This document shows, in pieces, positions 14,001 through 64,000 of a stretch of 64,000 nucleotides of DNA. Below the pieces are notes generated by a model, which had not been told where the DNA came from, did no database searches, and saw only the letters and a program-made list of their open reading frames with translations. The stretch covers positions 115,320,001-115,384,000 of the forward strand of contig NC_091994.1 in NCBI RefSeq assembly GCF_044704955.1, in the 5' to 3' direction. Source of the stretch: Pristiophorus japonicus. Its lineage: Eukaryota. The position numbers and the translations under genes are program-made. Each line of letters begins with the position of its first letter. Within the stretch, counting starts at the first letter, position 1.

Positions 14001-14163
14001 GTTCTTTTTCTTGGGTTTCTCTGCCCTCCACTTTTCCTCATCTCCTTTCTGTCTTTTGATTTTGTCTCCTTTTTGTTTCCCTCTGTCTCCCTGCATTGGT
14101 TCCCATCCCCCTGCCATATTAGTTTAACTCCTCCCCAACAGCACTAGCAAACACTCCCCCTAG
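11063..14163 (-). mobile_element. Young CR1 LINE nested inside the + strand CR1
   Basis: ORF2 pieces 11156-14041; (CATAGAAA)2 tail at 11064. Confidence 0.95.
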
Positions 14164-15678
14164 GGATTGTGGAATGAGGGCTAAAGTAGACTGGGAACAC
14201 AGACTAAACGGTGGCACAATTGAGGAACAGTGGAGTACTTTTAAGGAGCTCTTTCATAGTGCTCAACAAAAATATATTCCAGTGAAAAAGAAGGGTGGTA
14301 AGAGAAGGGATAACCAGCCGTGGATAACCAAGGAATTAAAGGAGAGTATCAAATTAAAAACCAATGCGTATAAGGTGGCCAAGGTTAGTGGGAAATTAGA
14401 AGATTGGGAAAATTTTAAACGACAGCAAAAAATGAGTAAGAAAGCAATAAAGAAAGGAAAGATAGATTACGAAAGTAAATTTGCGCAAAACATAAAAACA
14501 GATAGTAAAAGCTTTTACCAATATATACAACGGAAAAGAGTGACTAAAGTAAATGTTGGTCCCTTAGAAGATGTGAAGGGGAATTTAATAATGGGAAATG
14601 TGGAAATGGCTGAGACCTTAAACAATTATTTTGCTTCAGTCTTCACAGTGGAAGACACAAAAACCATGCCAAAAATTACTGGTCACGGGAATGTGGGAAG
14701 GGAGGACCTTGAGACTATCACTAGGGGGGAAGTGCTGGACAAGCTAATGGGACTCAAGGTAGACAAGTCCCCTCGTCCTGATGAAATGCATCCCAGGGTA
14801 TTAAAAGAGATGGCAGAAGTTATAGCAGATGCATTTGTTATAATCTACCAAAATTCTCTGGACTCTGGGGAGGTACCAGCGGATTGGAAAGCAGCTAATG
14901 TAACGCCCCTGTTTTTAAAAAAAAAAAGGGGCAGACAAAAGGCAGGTAACTATAGACCACTTAGTTTAACATCTGTAGTGGAGAAAATGTTTGAAGCTAT
15001 CATTAAGGAAGAAATAGCGCGACATCTAGATAGGAATAGTGCAATCAAGCAGACGCAACATGGATTCATGAAGGGGAAATCATGTTTCACTAATTTACTG
15101 GAATTCTTTGAGGATTTAACGAGCATGGTGGATAGAGGTGTACCGATGGATGTGGTGTATTTAGATTTCCAAAAAGCATTCGATAAGGTGCCACACAAAA
15201 GGTTACTGCAGAAGATAAAGGTACGCGGAGTCAGAGGAAATGTATTAGCATGGATCGAGAATTGGCTGGCTAACAGAAAGCAGAGAGTCGGGATAAATAG
15301 GTCCTTTTCGGGTTGGAAATCGGTGGTTAGTGGTGTGCCACAGGGATCGGTGCTGGGACCACAACTGTTTACAATATACATAGATGATCTGGAAGAGGGG
15401 ACAGAGTGTAGTGTAACAAAATTTGCAGATGACACAAAGATTAGTAGGAAAGCGGGTTGTGCAGAGGACACAGAGAGGCTGCAAAGAGATTTCGATAGGT
15501 TAAGCGAATGGGCTAAGGTTTGGCAGATGGAATACAATGTCGGAAAGTGTGAAGTCATCCACCTTGGGGGGGGGGGGGGGGGGGAGGGAAGAGAAACAGT
15601 AATAGGGAATATTACTTGAATGGGGAGAAATTGCATCATGCTGTGATGCAGAGGGACCTGGGGGTCCTTGTGCATGAA
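14164..15678 (+). mobile_element. CR1 LINE (host copy), part 2: RT
   Basis: ORF 14174..15619, 481 aa, with all RT motifs. Confidence 0.95.
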
Positions 15679-17581
15679 ACTCTTTTTGGAGTTCACCTGC
15701 AAAACATAAAACATTAAACGGTGCCACCCGACCTGGGTGACACTCCAGACATTTACAAGACCCTTTTTCCCCCCCCCTTTTTTTTTTTTTTTTGTTTTTC
15801 TTTTTTTGGTTTTTTTTTGGGCACTAAAATCACAATTTTCCCCAGTGCCCCCTATAAAAGGGAAGGGGGACACTAAAAGCACCGGCAATTAAAACAAATT
15901 AAACTTAAAAACGTAAAATCAAATTAAAATTTGGTTGCCGGGCGTGATGATGCACTCCAGTCCCTCCGGTGCCCACCTCTCGCGGAAGGCCGCGAGCGTA
16001 CCGGTGGACACCGCGTGCTCCATCTCCAAGGACACCCTGGACCGGATGTAAGAGCGGAAGAGAGGCAGGCAGTCAGGTTGAACGACCCCCTCGACCGCCC
16101 GCTGCCTGGACCGGCTGATGGCACCCTTGGCCGTGCCCAGGAGCAGTCCTACGAGGAGGCCTTCGGACCTACCCGCTCCCCTCCGCACATGTGCCCAAAG
16201 ATCAGGAGAGTGGGACTGAAGTGCAGCCAGAATTTCAGGAGCAGCCCCTTCAAATAATGGAACAGGGGCTGCAACCTCGTGCACTCAATAAAAACATGGA
16301 ACACGGACTCCTCCAGACTGCAGAAATTGCAGGCGGCCTGGGAGTCCGTGAACCGGCTTAAAAATTTGTTGCACGGCACTGCTCCGTGCACCACCCTCCA
16401 GGCCAAGTCCCCGATGAATAGTGGGAGGACCCCTGCGTAGAGTGCCCTCCATCGGGGACCCCCGCCTCCTCCGGACGGCAAGATGGTACGCCATGGAGTG
16501 TCCGGACGGCCGGCGAGGATGGCAAAGTTGAGGGTGTGCAGGAGCAGCCCGTACAGGAAACCCCTCCGCGCGGAACTGAAAGGCACGGAGGGGATTTCCC
16601 CGAGGCGGCTCAAGTTGTGAGGCACCGGCCCCCGAGGGAGGTTCCGGGGTTTGGCGCCGATGAGGAATTCCGTCCGGACGGGGGTCAGTTCGGACGGGAT
16701 CTCCCCACGTGCTTGAGCCTCCTCGATGCACCTAACGGAGTCAGGGCCCAGAGCTGTTTTTAGCGACTCGATGGCATCGGCCGCGTGGCGGACGTTGGCA
16801 GAGTTTAGGCGCTGCGCCAGCGTGTCTGGCGCCATCCAGCCCGCTCCTCCGCCATCGAGCAGGTCCCTGACCCTGGTCACCTCACCAGCCACAGCCCTCT
16901 CTTCCGACCGCCACATAAAACCTCGGCCGTGGAGGTACGGATTCCCGAGCAGCGGTTCCTGCAGGACGGCCGCCGCTCCAGCCGGCGGAGAGCTGCGCTT
17001 GGTGGATACTTTGTTCCAGACCCTGATGAGTTCCCTGTAAAAGACAGGCAGCTCCCGGAGGGCGGTCCTGGCACCCACCAAGTTCACAAACAGGAGCTGC
17101 GTGTCATAATTGAGGTCGCGCTGCTGGCGGAAGAAATACCTCGCCAGAGCACACCACCTAGGAGGGGGCTCGACGTAAAGGTATCTCTGCAGGGTCTGAA
17201 GACGGAAAGTCGCGAGCTGGGTGCTGACGCACACCAACGACTGACCGCCCTCCTCAAGCGGGAGACTCAAGACCGCGGCAGAGACCCAGTGCTTCCTGTT
17301 GTTCCAGAAGAAGTCCACCAGCTTCTTCTGTATCTTGGCGACAAACGCAGGGGGAGGGGTCAAAGTGACCAGCCGGTACCACAGCATTGCGGCCACCAGC
17401 TGGTTTATGACTAGCGCTCGACCCCTGTAGGACAGCACTCGGAGCAGTCCTGTCCAGCGCCCTAGGCGAGCGGCGACCTTGGCCTCCAGCTCCTGCCAGT
17501 TCGCCGGCCAGGCTCCCTCGTCGGGGCTAAGGTAGACTCCCAGATAGAGGAGATGGGTCGTGCTCCAGGCAAAAGGCCTGA
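15679..17581 (-). mobile_element. Tx1-clade (L1 superfamily) LINE copy A, 5'-truncated
   Basis: YLGVYL, LSYRGRALVINQL, GGQSL, C-terminal CNFC...HVFIEC zinc knuckle; flanked by tccttgtgcatgaa direct repeats. Confidence 0.9.
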
Positions 17582-17595
17582 TCCTTGTGCATGAA

Positions 17596-18744
17596 ACTCT
17601 TTTGAGTTTACCTGCGAAAACATAAAACATGTATCCGTGCCACCCGACCTGGATGACACACACAAGACATTTACAAGGCCCTTTTTTTGTGGTTTTTTTT
17701 TTTTTGGGCACTAAAATCAAATTTTTCCTTATTCCAGTGCCCCCTATAAAAGGAGAGGGGGACACTAAAAGCACCGGCAATTAAAACAAATTAAACTTTA
17801 AAACGTAAAATCAAATTAAAATTTGGTTGCCGGGCGTGATGATGCACTCCAGTCCCTCCGGTGCCCACCTCTCGCGGAAGGCCGCGAGCGTACCGGTGGA
17901 CACCGCGTGCTCCATCTCCAAGGACACCCTGGACCGGATGTAAGAGCGGAAGAGAGGCAGGCAGTCAGGTTGAACGACCCCCTCGACCGCCCGCTGCCTG
18001 GACCGGCTGATGGCACCCTTGGCCGTGCCCAGGAGCAGTCCTACGAGGAGGCCTTCGGACCTACCCGCTCCCCTCCGCACATGTGCCCAAAGATCAGGAG
18101 AGTGGGACTGAAGTGCAGCCAGAATTTCAGGAGCAGCCCCTTCAAATAATAAAACAGGGGCTGCAACCTTGTGCATTCCATAAAAACATGGAACACGGAC
18201 TCTTCCAGACCGCAGAAATTGCAGGCGGCCTGGGAGTCCGTGAACCGGCTTAAAAATTTGTTGCACGGCACTGCTCCGTGCACCACCCTCCAGGCCAAGT
18301 CCCCGATGAATAGTGGGAGGACCCCTGCGTAGAGGGCCCTCCATCGGGGACCCCCGCCTCCTCCGGACGGCAAGATGGTACGCCATGGCGTGTCCGGACG
18401 GCCGGCGAGGATGGCAAAGTTGAGGGTGTGCAGAAGCAGCCCGTACAGGAAACCCCTCCGCGCGGAACTGAAAGGCACGGAGGGGATTTCCCTGAGGCGG
18501 CTCAAGTTGTGAGGCGCCGGCCCCCGAGGGAGGTTCCGGGGTTTGGCGCCGATGAGGAATTCCGTCCGGACGGGGGTCAGTTCGGACGGGATCTCCCCAC
18601 GTGCCTGAGCCTCCTCGATGCACCTAACGGAGTCACGGCCCAGAGCTGTTTTTAGCGACTCGATGGCATCGGCCGCGTGGCGGACGTTGGCAGAATTTAG
18701 GCGCCGCGCCAGCGTGTCTGGCGCCATCCAGCCCGCTCCTCCGC
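17596..18744 (-). mobile_element. Tx1-clade LINE copy B, shorter 5' truncation, in tandem with copy A
   Basis: Nearly identical to the 3' part of copy A; same flanking 14-bp repeat. Confidence 0.9.
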
Positions 18745-19450
18745 TCCTTGTGCATGAATCCCAAAAAAAAAAGTTAGTTTGCAGGTGCAGCAGGTAATCA
18801 GGAAGGCGAATGGAATGTTGGCCTTCATTGCGAGAGGGATGGAGTACAAAAGCAGGGAGGTTCTGCTGCAACTGTACAGGGTATTGGTGAGGCCGCACCT
18901 GGAGTACTGCGTGCAGTTTTGGTCACCTTACTTAAGGAAGGATATACAACTTTGGAGGGGGTACAGAGACAATTCACTAGGTTGATTCTGGAGATGAGGG
19001 GGTTACCTTATGATGATAGATTGAGTAGACTGGGTCTTTACTCGTTGGAGTTCAGAAGGATGAGGGGTGATCTTATAGAAACATTTAAAATAATGAAGGT
19101 GATCGACAAGATAGAGGCAGAGAGGTTGTTTCCACTGGTTGGGGAGGCTAGAACTCGGGGGCACAGCCTCAAAATACGGGGGAGCCAATTTAAAACCGAG
19201 TTGAGAAGGAATTTCTTCTCCCAGAGGGTTGTGAATCTGTGGAATTCTCTGCCCAAGGAAGCAGTTGAGGCTAGCTCATTGAATGTATTCAAATCACAGA
19301 GAGAGAGATTTTTAACCATTAAGGGTTACGGGGAGCGGGCGGGTAAGTGGAGCTGAGTCCACGGCCAGATCAGCCATGATCTTGTTGAATGGCGGAGCAG
19401 GCTCGAGCGGCTAGATGGCCTACTCCTATTCCTAATTCTTATGTTCTTAT
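18745..19450 (+). mobile_element. CR1 LINE (host copy), part 3: ORF2 C-terminus and TTCTTATG tail
   Basis: Resumes VHES..QVQQVIRKANG, RPHLEYC; tail ttcttatgttcttatg. Confidence 0.93.
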
Positions 19451-19815
19451 GACACCCCAGTGCAGTACTGAGGGAGCACTGCACTATCGGAGGTGCCGTC
19501 TTTTGGATGAGATGTTAAACTGAGGCCCTGTCTGTGTTCTCAAGTGGACGTAAAAGATCCCATGGCAGTATTTCGAAGAGGAGCAGGGGAGGTATCCCTG
19601 GTGTCCTGGCCAATATTTATCCTTCAACCAAAGTAACAAAAAAACAGATTATCTGGCAATTATCACATTGCTGTTTATGGGAGCTTGCTGTGAGCAATTT
19701 AGCTGCTGCGTTTCCTACATTACAACAGTAACTACTCTCTAAGTACTTCCATCAGCTGTAAAGTGCTTTGAGATGTCCGGTGGTCGTGAAAGGCACGATA
19801 GAAATGCAAGTCTTT
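19451..19815 (+). mobile_element. Deu-domain SINE body and 3' tail
   Basis: gtcctggccaatatttatcc, ttgctgtttatgggagcttgctgtg, gtgaaaggcacgatagaaatgcaagtc; related copies at about 28750-28950(-), 36760-36990(+), 44360-44580(-), 50850-51090(+). Confidence 0.8.
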
Positions 19816-21450
19816 TGCAAACCATATATGTCTTATTCACCCATGAAACTTTTTTCCTCCACCTCCATAATATCGCCCATCTTTATCCTTGCATCACTTT
19901 ACTGCCACTGAAATCTTTATTGATGCTTTTGTTACCTTTAAGCTTAACTTCAACACCTGAACTGCACTTTATACAAATCTGCCTGCATGCTATTCTGCAC
20001 CACATTCCATTTGTCTGTCACTCCTATTGTTGATGATCTCCTTTGTTGCCCTGCTGTACCTCTGCAACCTCATCCAGCTGTGCTCTTCCATCCTGCAGCT
20101 CCCTCCATTCTACCCTCGGTGACCGAGCATTCCATCTGTCTCAGCCACACTACTGGATCACTCTCGTTAAACACTCTGTCTTGTTTCCCTGCCTTTAAAA
20201 GTCGTCTTTAAAATCTTTCTCTAGACCATGCTTTCGGTCGGCTCTCCTAATTTTTCTGTTACTGCTCAGCATCTGCTTCTCCCTGACGAAAGAATATTCA
20301 GATCTGTTCACTGATTTTCTAAAAATTATTTTAATACATTATACATATATAATACAGACTTGTGCATGCTCACCCTCACCTCCTCAGCTTGTTCAATATT
20401 TGAGACAATGCCCCTTAAAGGAGTAACAAATTAATTTTTCTTCTGAGCTCTACTGGTGGCATTGCTTTTTTTCTTCCCTTGGGCTGCATTGTGGCGCCAC
20501 AGGTTTTCATTCTGTACCTCGTTCAAGTGGCTGTTAATTTATGTGTGAGCCTTGACCCCGGCTACCAGCAGGCGACCCAGCCGTGGAGATTATCACAGCC
20601 AGGTCCAATCCTGTTCTCGCTGTACTTGTCTGCACATGTCTACTTCCAATGGAGGTGGCTCTAAAGCCAGCAGGAGTTGGAACCTTTGGCTGATTCTCCC
20701 TCTTAACCAGATTCTCCCTCCGCAGCCTAAATTGTAAGGACTTTACCATGGTTCTGGCTGAGGTTGGCGACTCAAAGCAGGAGATCAAAATTACAATTTC
20801 ATGGTCTGAATGGCTGAGAGTTGCGACTACTCTCTGAACTGCCTGGAGAGCACATGGAAATATGTTGAATGAGAACTTGCACTGATTCAGATTGGGCTTA
20901 GCCAATGCTGGCCAAAAATGCATGATTTTTCTCAGTTAATTCAGCAATATCCGATCCACACAACCCAATGTGTATTCTGGACTGTGTTGTACTGTGTGAC
21001 CTAGTCATTTTGTGTTAATACAAAGAATCGTATCGTATCTACTGAACTATTTTTTTTTGTGGAACTTCCAGATATTTGATTTCCCCCCCCCCCCCCGCCA
21101 ATCACTTGTATAGCAGATACTGCCCGGTGTTGTTAACCAATGATGGTCATTATTGTAAACCTGGCAATGTGAATGTTAATATAATATTGGCAACATTAAC
21201 AAGGAGCAAAGATTCACACTCTGCAATTTTACTGAATTTGCTCTTAAGAATGTGTAAGAATTTATAAAAGACTTTGTACCTATTTTATGATATCTCAACC
21301 TGTAAGTCCCCATCAATAAGTGTATGGCAAAAGAGAAAGTATTGGGAAACGTCTAATGCAAATAGGAAATAATTCTCGTTGAATTGTGAAAGCTGCTGGT
21401 GTTCTGTTGTAATGTTGATCAGTGTATCTTTCCTTTCTGTGTTCTTTCAG

Positions 21451-21599
21451 TTCCAACTGCTGCTGTCTCTGCAACAGAGACTTCTGTTTCAAATGGTGTC
21501 TATGTTCCTCAAGGGATTGCCAATGGGGATGTCAAGCCTGTTATATCAACAACACCACTGGCAGACTTCCTTATGCAGTTAGAAGATTATACACCAACT
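21451..21599 (+). CDS. TAF10: TAF10 coding exon 2
   Basis: polypyrimidine-CAG acceptor, GTAAGT donor; encodes SNGVYVPQGIANGDVKPVISTTPLADFLMQLEDYTPT. Confidence 0.97.
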
Positions 21600-22904
21600 G
21601 TAAGTTTTTGTATTTTAATAATTCAAGCTCATATTGGAAACAATGTAAGTGCACAGTTAGAACTGGCTTTCCACATTTTCCATTCGCTTATCAATTAGCC
21701 AAGTAAACAAATTGCGTATAAATTATAATTAGCTGCAGTATAACAAAGTTACTGGTATGGCATTTGAACAGACAACGATTTCAACAGTTCCAATTCCCTG
21801 TAGAGCTTTGTAGTGCTGGAGATTTGCTCAGACTGAAGTTGATTTTAGGTTGTAGGGAGTGGGAGGCCAAGAGAACTTGGAATTCCGATCAATATTGATT
21901 TTCTGCAGATGGGACACGATGTTTAGAAATCCTTCATTCGAACATTTTTGAATCGAATAGATGGACATTAACTTGACATTTTCTGAATGTATAACCAGGA
22001 GTCCCGTTCAAGAAACTGAAACCATGGCAAAGGTATTTGGTGTTGCCTCAATAACTGTGAATTACAAAATAATCCTCCACTTTTTGTTGTTCAGAAAATT
22101 TACATGTGCAATATGCATATTCTGATCTATCATTCAAACTCCTTTTAGAGTACAAAAGTGCATCCATGTGTACAGCAAGCTTAAAATTAATTTTACTTGA
22201 TTAAAGTTTTTTGAGAGCACTTCATTCCAGTATAATGAACTGAACACAGTAAACTGGTGAAGCGTACAGTATCTGCATTCATATCAATTACAGAATTGTT
22301 TTTTGAGAATTAACAATTGTCTCTTCTCAAACCAACAACGTGAGTTTTGGTAAAGCTGTTTACAGTCTTGAGGGTCTGAGGAATTTTAGGTTTAGTTTTA
22401 CTTTATTTTCTGTGACTGTGGCATATGCCAGCACAAAGAAACTTTACATCAAAATCAGCTATACTCTAAAAGCTGGGCTGTATCATTCCATGCGTCTTTC
22501 CTTCAATGTTTCTCTGACACACAGGAGCTCTAACTGAGATTATTTAGAAAATGAATTGTTCAAAATCTAAGTACTTGGAACTCGCATAATTACAAAAGCT
22601 CTTTGCAAAGCATACTGCCTGTTTAGAACCTGGCATGAACTGTATTTAATATTGTCATTTAAGGAAATGGTCCCACAAACATGTAAGAATATTTGATAAA
22701 TGAGCAGTTATAATGGCCGCATGGAATCTCAGTATTGATTGGCTCTCGAGTAGGCTGTACTGCATTGTGGGATTTTCACAAGACGAGGTGGTGATAAAAG
22801 TATTGTTTAAATGCCAATGTATTCTGCCTTAAAGTGGTATGATATGTATACATAATTTTAAATGTAGCATTGCATTCTTATCTCTTGTTATTTGAACATT
22901 TCAG

Positions 22905-35315: not shown

Positions 35316-37289
35316 GAGTGTGACTGGAGTATTTAAACAGAAATGAGGGGAGAGCAGTGGCAGTGCAACCAGCAATGCAACAAGCTGTCCTTCATTGGCC
35401 TTAACATGCTTAATATCAGAAAGCAGAAGTGGAGACATTCGGTTTTGCTTGACTTCTAAATATAAACTCTAGCACAGCCTTTGTTCCAACACATTGCTTC
35501 CCATGAGTTCAGTGGTCATTCATCACCAGCATGAAATTGTTTGCATCCATCCCTTTTATTGACTCTGAGCTGCCCGCTCCACTCTGCGGGATATTGGAAT
35601 CCACAGTGATTAATGTATTAGCATTTCTTGCTGCTCTCTGTCTGCCTGATCACTGAGCTGGCGTGTAATAGTTCATTATTATTAGTTTGTTGACATTATC
35701 ATTGGTAATGTCAACTCATACTGATTCTGTCATCTCTTATAATATCATCCCTTTGAATACATGTGCGTTCCCTCTCACCATTACTGCCTCTCCAGCAATG
35801 ACACTTCCCTTTCTTACTCAGGTATATCTTTGGAAAGCATTCGTGGTTCTCTTAAATTCATTTTTTGTCCACCTTATGGTTGCAGCCACATTTCTGTAAT
35901 GCCAATAATTGTGTGAGTACGTCAAATTCCAAAAGTTTATTTGTAATTCCAGCTGTAAATTCTTATTCTTCCACACTTGATCCTGTACAATACTAGCTGA
36001 TCTCCCGTGGCATTGCACAGGGAATGGTTGAAGCGAATAGCACATATTCATTTAAGGGGAAGCTAGATAAACAGACGACGTGGGAGAAATGAATAGAAGG
36101 ATGTGCTGATGGGATGAGATGAAAAGGGGTGGGAGGAGGCTGGTGTGGAGAACAAACACCGACATGGACCAGCTGGGCCGAATGGGTTCTGTGCTGTGTT
36201 TTTGATGTGATAATGAATTGGGAAGTTTGGATTGAGGGGCTGCTTCTAGTCTGTAAATGGCGATGGATATATAAGCTGAGGCTTCTCTCTGACCCGAGTG
36301 ATGATAAGCAGTATTTGGGACAGACTGTGGTAATACTGGCCAATGTCTATAGGGTAGCCTTGTCATGCGGCCGCGTGGAGGAGCAGGAAGGTGGGCACGG
36401 GAGCTCGGCAGATATAGGCCATGACCATCCTAAAGCAGCCGCGGGAAAGCCAATGGTTCGCCATAGGATGCTTGTCCAGGGGCTGAATATGACAGAAATA
36501 CGAGACAGTGGGGACAGAGTATTGTCGTAGAGAAGGCGCTAGAATGGAACAGAGGGGGACACAGAACAGAGGTGCCAATGGTGGAAGCAGACTAGATCCC
36601 AATCATTTAATGCAGTAAAAAAGCATGGGGAACAGCAAAGTGTATAAAACTTTATAAATAACAAAAGATTAAAGTTCGTGTGATCAGCCTTTTAGTAGAA
36701 TCTCCCTTTTCCCGTGTACCATCGAGAGTTAAGATGTCCGCTCTCTTGGTGGTGCAGTGGGTGAATATTCTGACTAATTTCCCGGCCACCATTTTTCCCT
36801 CAATCACCATCACTAAAACAGATTCTGTGGCCGTGACCACATTGCTGTTTGTGGGAGCTTGCTGTGCGCACTCTGGCTGCCGCCAGATAGTACAAAGTGA
36901 TTACACTTCAAAAAGTACTTCATTGGCTGTAAAGTGCTTTGGGACGTCCTGAGGTTGCGAAAGGCGCTATATAAATGCAAGTCTTTCTTTCCAATGTATT
37001 ACTGAGCCATGCATTGGCAGAAAGCCCCATGTCCGGCCCAATCTATGCTAATGAGCCAACTGGCCTTCGCTGGGTGGGCGGGGCCTCAGTGTCTCGAGGT
37101 TGCAGATGGGGGCAAATCAATCGAATCTCCCTCTCCGAAGGTTAGCTAGTAACCCCCCCCCCCCCCCGCTGGAAAGTGTGAGGGTGCCGTTGTTGGGTGA
37201 GAAGCCCTCGCTCCCTCAGCCCACGGTGATGGAGCAGCGGAGCGGCCTGTGGAATTCAGAGCCGAGACTTCAGGTGATGGGGAGCGGAG

Positions 37290-53256: not shown

Positions 53257-53363
53257 CACGGCAGCATCCGCCAAGGAGGCTGGGCTCCCACTCTGCGGTC
53301 AGACTGATACACTCCTGTCACTCTGCAGCTGGCTCTGAGTACAAGGGAAGTAACAGCGGCCAC

Positions 53364-53617
53364 ATCCGTGCCAGGGTGTCCTTGGAGATGGAGTACGCGG
53401 TGTCCACCTGTACGCTCGCGGCCTTCTGTGAGAGGTGGGCGCTGGAGGGACTGGAGTGCATTGTCACCCCCGGCAACCAAATTTTAATTTGACTCTATAT
53501 GTTTTAAGGTTTAATTTGTTTTAATTGCCGGGTTTTTAGTGTCCCCCTCCCCTTTTATAGGGGGCACTTGTCAAATGTGGAATTTTAATGCCCTAAAAAA
53601 AACATACAAAAAAAATC
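53364..53617 (+). mobile_element. Short Tx1 3' fragment with 13-bp target-site duplication
   Basis: Same ORF end as copies A/B (ERWALEGLECIVTPGNQILI); TAACAGCGGCCAC at 53351-53363 and 53618-53630. Confidence 0.9.
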
Positions 53618-54726
53618 TAACAGCGGCCACCCTGTTTTCTGCACCGACACAACCAGCAATGGGAACACTGTAATGGGCGCTTCGGGTTTAATATTAACGG
53701 CACGGTATAAATATTCACATCATCTGGGCCAGCCAACGGAGGAGAATTGGGAAAGGTCATAGCTTTTAAAAGGGACCAGCGACCTGAAACATTAACCCTG
53801 CTTCTCTCTCCACAGATGCTGCCTGGCCCGCTGAGTATTTCCAGTACGTTCAGTTGTTATTTTGGAATTAATTCCTATTCTGCCTCCTCAGATACTTGGG
53901 TGGAATCTGCCTTGGACATTCAGTGAGTAGGAGAGCGCGAACGGAACCCATGCAAGCAACATTTGTCGCTCCAGTTCAGCGTGAGTTCAGGTGTATATTC
54001 GCTGCAGTACATTAAATGGTCAAAGTCAAGGCGCTGACAAGCAATGGGGGATCAGGCAGGTTGCTGAGCGTTAGGGGGCTGCAGTCCCAGAGAGGGATAT
54101 AAAAGGCAAAGATCAGGGAATTCTCCAGGGAAGTTCATCCTGCACTGCATTCAATCTGGTCTCATGGTCACCAACTGTTCTTTGCTTACCTCAATGCCTT
54201 CTCCTGTATACCATTTCAGGGTGTATCTTTCATTCCTTCCCAGTTGACCATCTCCAATATTAATTTATTGGGTACCATAGGACAGTACCCGCAGTGCTGC
54301 CCCACTCATCAGTCTCCAGCCCACCTGCCCAGCCCAGCACTGACCATTTTCCCTGGTGCTGCCCAGTTATCAGAAAGACCCAACATCCAGAAATGTAATT
54401 ACTTTTAAATTACATTGAAAAAGCACCCACAGTATTTGTTCTCATGCTGGGGAGCCATCTCATAATATAAAAGGGATAGATTCCCATCAGCAGCAACCTA
54501 CAGTGATCCACAATTATTTCTGTATGAAGAGGTGTTGGTCTCTCTGCTTCGGGTGGGAGCTGACTTTCTGCATGCAGATGATGGCTGGGTTCTTCCTTCA
54601 GCCTGCAAAGTACTTCTTGCACTCACCCCAACGTCCCCCCCCCCACCACCCCACATCACAATCTGCCCGAAACCTGCTTGTTGTTAAAATTCGGCCTCTT
54701 ATGTTAAGTGTCCTGAATATAGGTAT

Positions 54727-63519: not shown

Positions 63520-63790
63520 AACCCAACAAAGGTGCCTCCTATTTAGAGGGGCACAACCAATAGAAAACTAAAGCTTAAACCAGGAAGCTCCAAAAATTAA
63601 ATAATAATGTTGTTACCCATGTCCGCAATGCCCCCCAGTCCCTGCTGTGCCCACTGGTCCTGATGATGCCCACCAGCCATGGAAGGCCTCAAATATACCT
63701 GAAGAATCCACATGCATCTTTTCCAGGGCCACCTGGACATGGACAAGGCCACAGACAGATAAGGTAAGGGTCCTGCATTGGCTGCGAATT
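63520..63790 (-). mobile_element. Old Tx1 3' remnant
   Basis: QWAQQGLGGIADMGNNIII* resembles RWAPEGLECIITPGNQILI*. Confidence 0.55.
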
Positions 63791-64000
63791 GAACCAATTC
63801 TCCTGTAGCAGCCAATAAGCTTACCCCTGAATCACCAAGTCTTGTGGAATTAACCCTTATTTTTTTTTTTATTGCTAGCTTCAATGAAGGATCCCATCTC
63901 AAATATTAACCTTTGTTTCTGTTTCTGATGTGGGTCAACCTGCTCGGCATTTCCAACAATGTCTGTTTCTTTCAACGGCTTTCAGTGGGGAGAATTCTTA

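Follow-up and report, generated by a model that had tools for sequence, protein, structure and literature searches.

How do two copies of one long interspersed nuclear element (LINE) come to lie head to tail at the same short sequence within another LINE? The question is raised by a stretch of 64,000 nt of the Pristiophorus japonicus genome (hereafter the window, in whose numbering all coordinates are given), where two 5'-truncated copies of a Tx1-type LINE interrupt a CR1-type LINE and are bracketed by three copies of a 14-bp sequence. We consider, with a probability of roughly 0.7, that these two young copies are separate target-primed insertions, made by a family whose endonuclease is predicted to prefer this CR1 site.

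Two Tx1 copies around a duplicated 14-bp site

The 14-mer TCCTTGTGCATGAA was found by pattern search on the plus strand, exactly, at 15665..15678, 17582..17595 and 18745..18758. With up to two mismatches allowed it has four matches in the window against 1.07 expected, a number reached by none of 100 shuffles. Between the repeats lie two Tx1 copies in minus-strand orientation, antisense to CR1. Copy A (15679..17581; 1,903 bp) was recognized by its similarity to Xenopus Tx1, and comprises the C-terminal part of open reading frame 2 (ORF2), a zf-RVT-like region and the 3' untranslated region (3'UTR). Copy B (17596..18744; 1,149 bp) was recognized by alignment to A and by a profile match. The middle repeat thus stands between the 5' end of A and the 3' end of B. 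The copies have their 3' end in common and differ in their 5' ends, B starting 729 nt further 3' than A. Between their ORF parts there are 16 differences in 945 positions, and in the terminal 3'UTR there are 11 in 80, besides indels, so that we speak of an A-type tail (15679-15760, minus strand) and a B-type tail (17596-17680, minus strand). The triple repeat, the unlike truncations and the diverged 3'UTRs, all noted in a preliminary description of this DNA, are therefore confirmed at exact positions.

Contigs of four public runs (X3, X5, X9 and X18, out of 20 runs listed) were aligned to positions 15250-17685. Those of X5 and X9 track CR1 up to 15678 and then read TCCCAAAAAGTTAG, which is the sequence downstream of the third repeat. 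Such empty CR1 sites hold the 14-mer only once, followed by TCCCAAAAAG, and TCCTTGTGCATGAA is thus a true 14-bp target site duplication (TSD). The first repeat is the target itself and encodes part of a DLGVLVHE motif: the CR1 peptide reads ...QRDLGVLVHE before the site and continues with ...SLQVQQVIRKANG after the third repeat. Peptide and empty sites together bear out the earlier proposal that CR1 resumes past that repeat. In X3, which may come from the same sample as the window, 95 contigs run beyond 17581 into more Tx1 sequence, the first letter of which is G; the 5' end of A is therefore a clean truncation without microhomology. With a fixed 3' end, variable 5' truncation and a TSD, the insertions carry hallmarks of target-primed reverse transcription. 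X5 has no contig covering the tail and X3 has no loose end at 15679 among those listed, which bears neither way.

Stacking at other places in the genome

The junction evidence consists of the best-supported rows (joints, 15 of 221; spacers, 12 of 123; loose ends, 24 of 1,745) and is not a random sample. Among the rows listed for X3, the Tx1 body or tail is joined at 11 different positions to a spacer and then to a Tx1 3' tail. Ten of these 11 joints use the main 14-mer site, with truncation points at 15990, 15999, 16044, 16486, 16565, 16623, 16652, 16856, 16932 and 17685. Since different truncation points correspond to different reverse-transcription events, stacking at the CR1 site is recurrent. 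The spacer starts exactly at the first TSD base in 6 of the 10 joints, and at -2, +1, +2 and +3 in the other 4. Not included in this count are four further spacer rows and five short internal deletions. The sequences GATC and GANTC, which we take to be Hi-C enzyme sites (the library type is not on record), are present at none of the 'from' ends of the 11 tandem joints; they flank both sides of five internal joints, which were removed as likely Hi-C ligation products. One joint, from 17685 to 17582 at the edge of the aligned stretch, would fit an insertion of the tail alone (about 90 nt), after which come the TSD and a further tail.

By analogy with the clade, such a locus could be built as follows. 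An apurinic/apyrimidinic-type (APE) endonuclease would place its nick in the sense strand of CR1, behind ...GCATGAA, and the freed 3'-OH would prime reverse transcription from the Tx1 3' end. An early stop of synthesis would leave a 5' truncation, and a further nick, offset by about 14 nt, would duplicate the site. As each insertion would regenerate the 14-mer, the next Tx1 could land there and stack head to tail; neighbouring copies might later exchange sequence by gene conversion, here over about 350 bp. Under CR1 targeting, young A- and B-type 3' ends should be followed by TTCATGCAC or by other CR1 sequence.

The CR1 site itself varies by subfamily, and three types are seen: GCATGAA/TCCC, GCATGAA/ACAC (the slash marks the putative nick) and the GTCATGGTACATCAG type. 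Loose ends at 15649 and 15680 in X3, X5 and X18 belong to a related CR1 subfamily that matches 15649-15680 and continues ACAAAAAGTTAG, its site reading GCATGAA-AC. The Tx1 tail likewise ends in AC, and the AC of the tail may be read-through derived from the target. A hairpin between the Tx1 tail and read-through target (z -3.1 for B, -1.3 for A) was discarded, 12-27% of random or shuffled 14-mers matching its gain. The 10-mer TTTGCAGGTG is common to tail A (sense; 15689-15698) and to CR1 just downstream of the site (about 18777-18786); 1% of random windows reach a 10-mer and 4.8% the 8-mer of B, and this post hoc match was not used as a signal.

A probable second site and other exceptions

The eleventh X3 joint (from 15980, on one contig) carries ATGATCTTAT and resumes at TGAAACTC, its 14-nt spacer being ATGATCTTATTGAA. 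This spacer matches the CR1 3'UTR, with eight window matches at one mismatch or less, two of these being exact, where 0.06 would be expected; one of the one-mismatch copies lies in the host CR1 itself, at 19376-19389. It has 6 of 14 letters in common with the main site, including the TGAA before the putative nick, and T comes next in both. We consider ATGATCTTATTGAA a likely second CR1 target, located in the 3'UTR and sharing TGAA/T. All 11 copies of the 3'UTR motif listed in the window are empty, which argues that this second site is used rarely.

A diverged related Tx1 copy at 53364..53617 (plus strand; 87% by blastn; 222 identities with A over 244 aligned positions) ends at an A-tract, lacks the terminal 90 nt or so, and is flanked by its own 13-bp TSD, TAACAGCGGCCAC (53351-53363 and 53618-53630), outside CR1. 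Specificity is therefore not family-wide, and the copy suggests that the tail of about 90 nt was acquired later, or else that priming can begin at an internal position. In addition, five other CR1 copies in the window span the homologous position; all five read differently there and are uninterrupted, a small sample that fits subfamily-specific targeting. Altogether, the site preference is likely strong but not absolute. The proposal of independent insertions directed at a CR1 target gains from the 10 further truncation points at the same 14-mer, but exclusive targeting would be too strong a claim in view of the second spacer and the copy at 53.4 kb.

The CR1 site accounts for 10 of 11 listed tandem spacers, rows that are biased to favoured sites, and for 2 of the 3 close copies in the window. 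As a yardstick, Kojima (2015; PMC4494074) calls a Tx1 family target-specific when one type of repeat occupies more than 20% of its flanks.

Divergence and probable exchange between the two copies

Both tail types are widespread. Summed contig depth in X3, to be read as an order of magnitude and not as copy number, is about 310,000-370,000 at 15699-15708 for the A-type tail, and 90,000 at 17616 and 350,000 at 17656 for the B-type tail; both are also present in X18. Outside positions 15908-16258, B has the majority letter at all seven listed sites where A departs from 71-97% of X3 depth. Relative to an X5 contig that is 99% like A, A has five differences in 16312-16852; B agrees with the contig at these five positions and differs from A at five others. 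By these counts both copies are young and similar in age.

A different picture is given by a tract that is identical in A (15908..16258) and B (17800-18150), on the minus strand. Over its 351 positions there are 0 differences, whereas the 594 positions upstream have 16 (scan permutation p=0.009). It contains a 1-nt frameshift at 16189-16190 (about 18082 in B), confirmed against P0003 and P0001; at 16190, a different letter accounts for about 95% of X3 depth. Such a pattern was likely produced by gene conversion between the neighbours after insertion. It may also reflect a minor frameshifted subfamily, as about 5% of X3 depth keeps the frameshift letter, or an assembly effect.

Alternative explanations

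The identical tract with its rare frameshift is what gives some support to a local tandem duplication of a single insertion, followed by deletion and divergence, or to an assembly artefact. This scenario would need a deletion of 729 bp with its end exactly at the TSD, however; moreover, the two tails differ at 11 of 80 positions and both tail types are genome-wide variants, and the rare letters of A outside the tract are missing from B. We find it scarcely credible, and the independence of the copies, as first claimed, holds to the extent that simple local duplication is rejected, even though the tract was likely homogenized later. A single integration could also yield a tandem if the reverse transcriptase jumped onto a second Tx1 RNA carrying 3' read-through of the target. 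Template jumping is known for the LINE enzyme of R2, and the shifted spacer starts in 4 of 10 joints would suit it. The read-through would nevertheless have to be exactly as long as the outer TSD (14 nt), both at this locus and at 6 of the 10 joints. The second spacer, although unrelated, also measures 14 nt, and targeting of the CR1 site would be required anyway, which leaves this scenario very improbable.

Alternatively, the enzyme may recognize a loose short motif (approximately T.T...TGAA/W) with no CR1 specificity, abundant CR1 dominating the tandem junctions while most solo copies are scattered. The poor likeness of the second spacer to the main site would be in keeping with this, as would the copy outside CR1 and the near-equal Tx1 and CR1 depths in X3, given that one site per CR1 would then need heavy stacking. 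A motif of 4-5 bases should yield many unrelated spacers, yet 10 of the 11 listed carry the identical 14-mer and the eleventh is also CR1-like, and the 3'UTR motif copies listed in the window are empty. We regard the loose motif as unlikely, and retain separate insertions with a strong CR1 preference.

Several points weigh against this reading. The frameshift common to A and B means that their sequences are not wholly independent, one of the three closely related Tx1 copies in the window lies outside CR1, and the window contains no endonuclease domain. X3 alone supplies the target joints, the rows listed containing none in X5, X9 or X18. Joint depths are 46-215, versus 11-45 for eight listed X3 pieces, which suggests that some junctions multiplied after they had formed. 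Finally, the counts cover tandem junctions, which over-represent favoured sites, rather than all 3' ends.

The Tx1 family

The protein of copy A has 44% identity to residues 749-1207 of Xenopus Tx1 ORF2 over 97% of its 476-aa fragment. In pairwise scores, this C-terminal part of ORF2 reaches 422 bits (E 1e-120) with Xenopus Tx1 and about 21 bits with human L1 ORF2p. The zf-RVT match (E 1e-5 to 2e-5) falls slightly under the curated cut-off, as does that of Xenopus Tx1 itself. Both A and B are truncated and lack the reverse transcriptase (RT) core; the full-length relatives P0001 and P0012 carry Exo_endo_phos. The young copies are about 1% from a consensus-like contig. The family is very abundant, the depth of its body in X3 being about 1-3 million versus 2.4-3.6 million for CR1, with lower values in X18 and X5.

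Copies A and B both retain two GC-rich stem-loops in the Tx1 3'UTR (15720-15745 and 15850-15875, minus strand), of which the proximal one also occurs in the related copy at 53.4 kb; the stem-loops have weak fold z-scores and are possible recognition signals for ORF2. An Rfam search gave no match near threshold. An old, distant Tx1-like fossil of the ORF2 C-terminal part lies at 63600-63795 (minus strand; tblastn E 1e-4), around which no flanking repeat of at least 9 bp was found. Pattern and protein scans of metagenomes and viruses, and a scan of prokaryote genomes, yielded no usable extra locus; a single match on a bacterial contig was set aside as chance.

The host CR1

The host element has a 5'-truncated ORF2 at 14165..15664 (plus strand, start approximate; RVT_1 E 3e-30) and continues at 18759..19451 (plus strand), as judged from translation and sequence, with the end of ORF2, the 3'UTR and an 8-bp tandem tail, (TTCTTATG)2, at 19436-19451. 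Its best named protein matches are shark, ray, bird and turtle RTs, none of which carries the name CR1. Bird LINEs are mostly CR1, and an 8-bp 3' tail is typical of CR1; on these protein matches and features the host is assigned to the CR1 type. The RT match covers about 14924-15562 and is followed by a poly-G slip at 15567-15584. The insertion had been placed inside the CR1 RT gene, which is correct for ORF2 but not for the matched RT core: the site lies about 35 codons past the end of the RVT_1 match (near 15562), in the post-RT part of ORF2 that holds the DLGVLVHE motif.

Being 5'-truncated and frameshifted, this CR1 copy is dead. The idea of a parasite of a LINE for that reason goes too far: what the locus shows is a landing pad of dead CR1 DNA, not damage to an active CR1.

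Relation to known systems

That several Tx1 families are sequence-specific, some of them for other transposons, agrees with published descriptions of Tx1L and Tx1D and of crocodilian families (PMC1950540, PMC4494074). Tx1L of Xenopus laevis, the type element of the clade and the source of the 44% identity, targets the transposon Tx1D by means of a specific APE endonuclease (PMC1950540, PMC4494074), which is described as sequence-specific in vitro and as nicking almost only its target (PMC1950540). The target of Tx1L is a DNA transposon of the piggyBac type, whereas here it is the coding region of a LINE. Targets reported for the clade include piggyBac, Mariner, Harbinger and long terminal repeat (LTR) elements, small nuclear RNA (snRNA) and 5S genes, satellites and microsatellites (Kojima 2015, PMC4494074). 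Among crocodilian elements, Tx1-Mar with the short interspersed nuclear element (SINE) SINEU-3, Tx1-8_Crp, Tx1-4_AMi (LTR) and Tx1-9_AMi (Harbinger) likewise prefer other transposable elements, with preferences of 13% to 90%, and tandem SINEU-3 copies that sandwich one TSD are attributed to sequential insertion (PMC4494074). In contrast to the present case, no LINE target is named for the crocodilian families in the passages of that article consulted. Keno, Kibi and Koshi, of fish and other animals, are similarly sequence-specific families of the clade, but their targets are U2 snRNA genes and microsatellites.

In the open full-text literature (subscription papers and Repbase lying outside this scope) we found no Tx1 family that targets CR1 or a LINE ORF2. 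Transposon targeting by Tx1 and stacking around a TSD are thus already known, and CR1 ORF2 as the target was not met with in the literature searched. HER1 is presumably CR1-like. The HER1 LINE and the HE1 SINE are a shark and ray pair with a shared 3' end (PMC3747384), and the second CR1 site could lie in a shared tail of the HE1/HER1 type.

Wider implications

The locus would extend the list of Tx1 targets to a LINE coding region. As the family is young and very abundant, its choice of target can be counted, and its endonuclease could be tested on two natural sites. Exchange of sequence between stacked copies would confound dating. Elements that insert into multicopy DNA are regarded as sparing their host in this way (PMC4640811, PMC8869645). 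If occupancy is high, one LINE would shape the survival of the dominant LINE in a shark-like genome, and competition between transposons would become testable. A bolder scenario is that of a hyperparasitic Tx1, which would have gained its new tail of about 90 nt together with CR1 specificity, would use two unrelated CR1 sites with one 14-nt stagger, and would have reached numbers near those of its host subfamily, breaking CR1 ORF2s genome-wide and driving subfamilies to escape by recoding of the target. The escape part is proposed because the five other CR1 copies of the window differ at the site and are empty. We hold this scenario to be rather doubtful.

Neighbouring features

At about 14160-14168 the host CR1 abuts, head to head, a CR1 on the minus strand that belongs to a different subfamily (about 68% identity, matching up to 14160), and no TSD was seen at this junction. 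Directly behind the CR1 tail, a SINE-like repeat occupies 19453-19820, with copies of 70-75% at 36780, 44360 and 50887. At about 21450-21620 (plus strand) an exon-like peptide (SNGVYV...GDVKPVISTTPLADFLMQLEDY) is encoded, which has no Pfam match and which we take to resemble TAF10; the locus may lie in or upstream of a TAF10-like gene.

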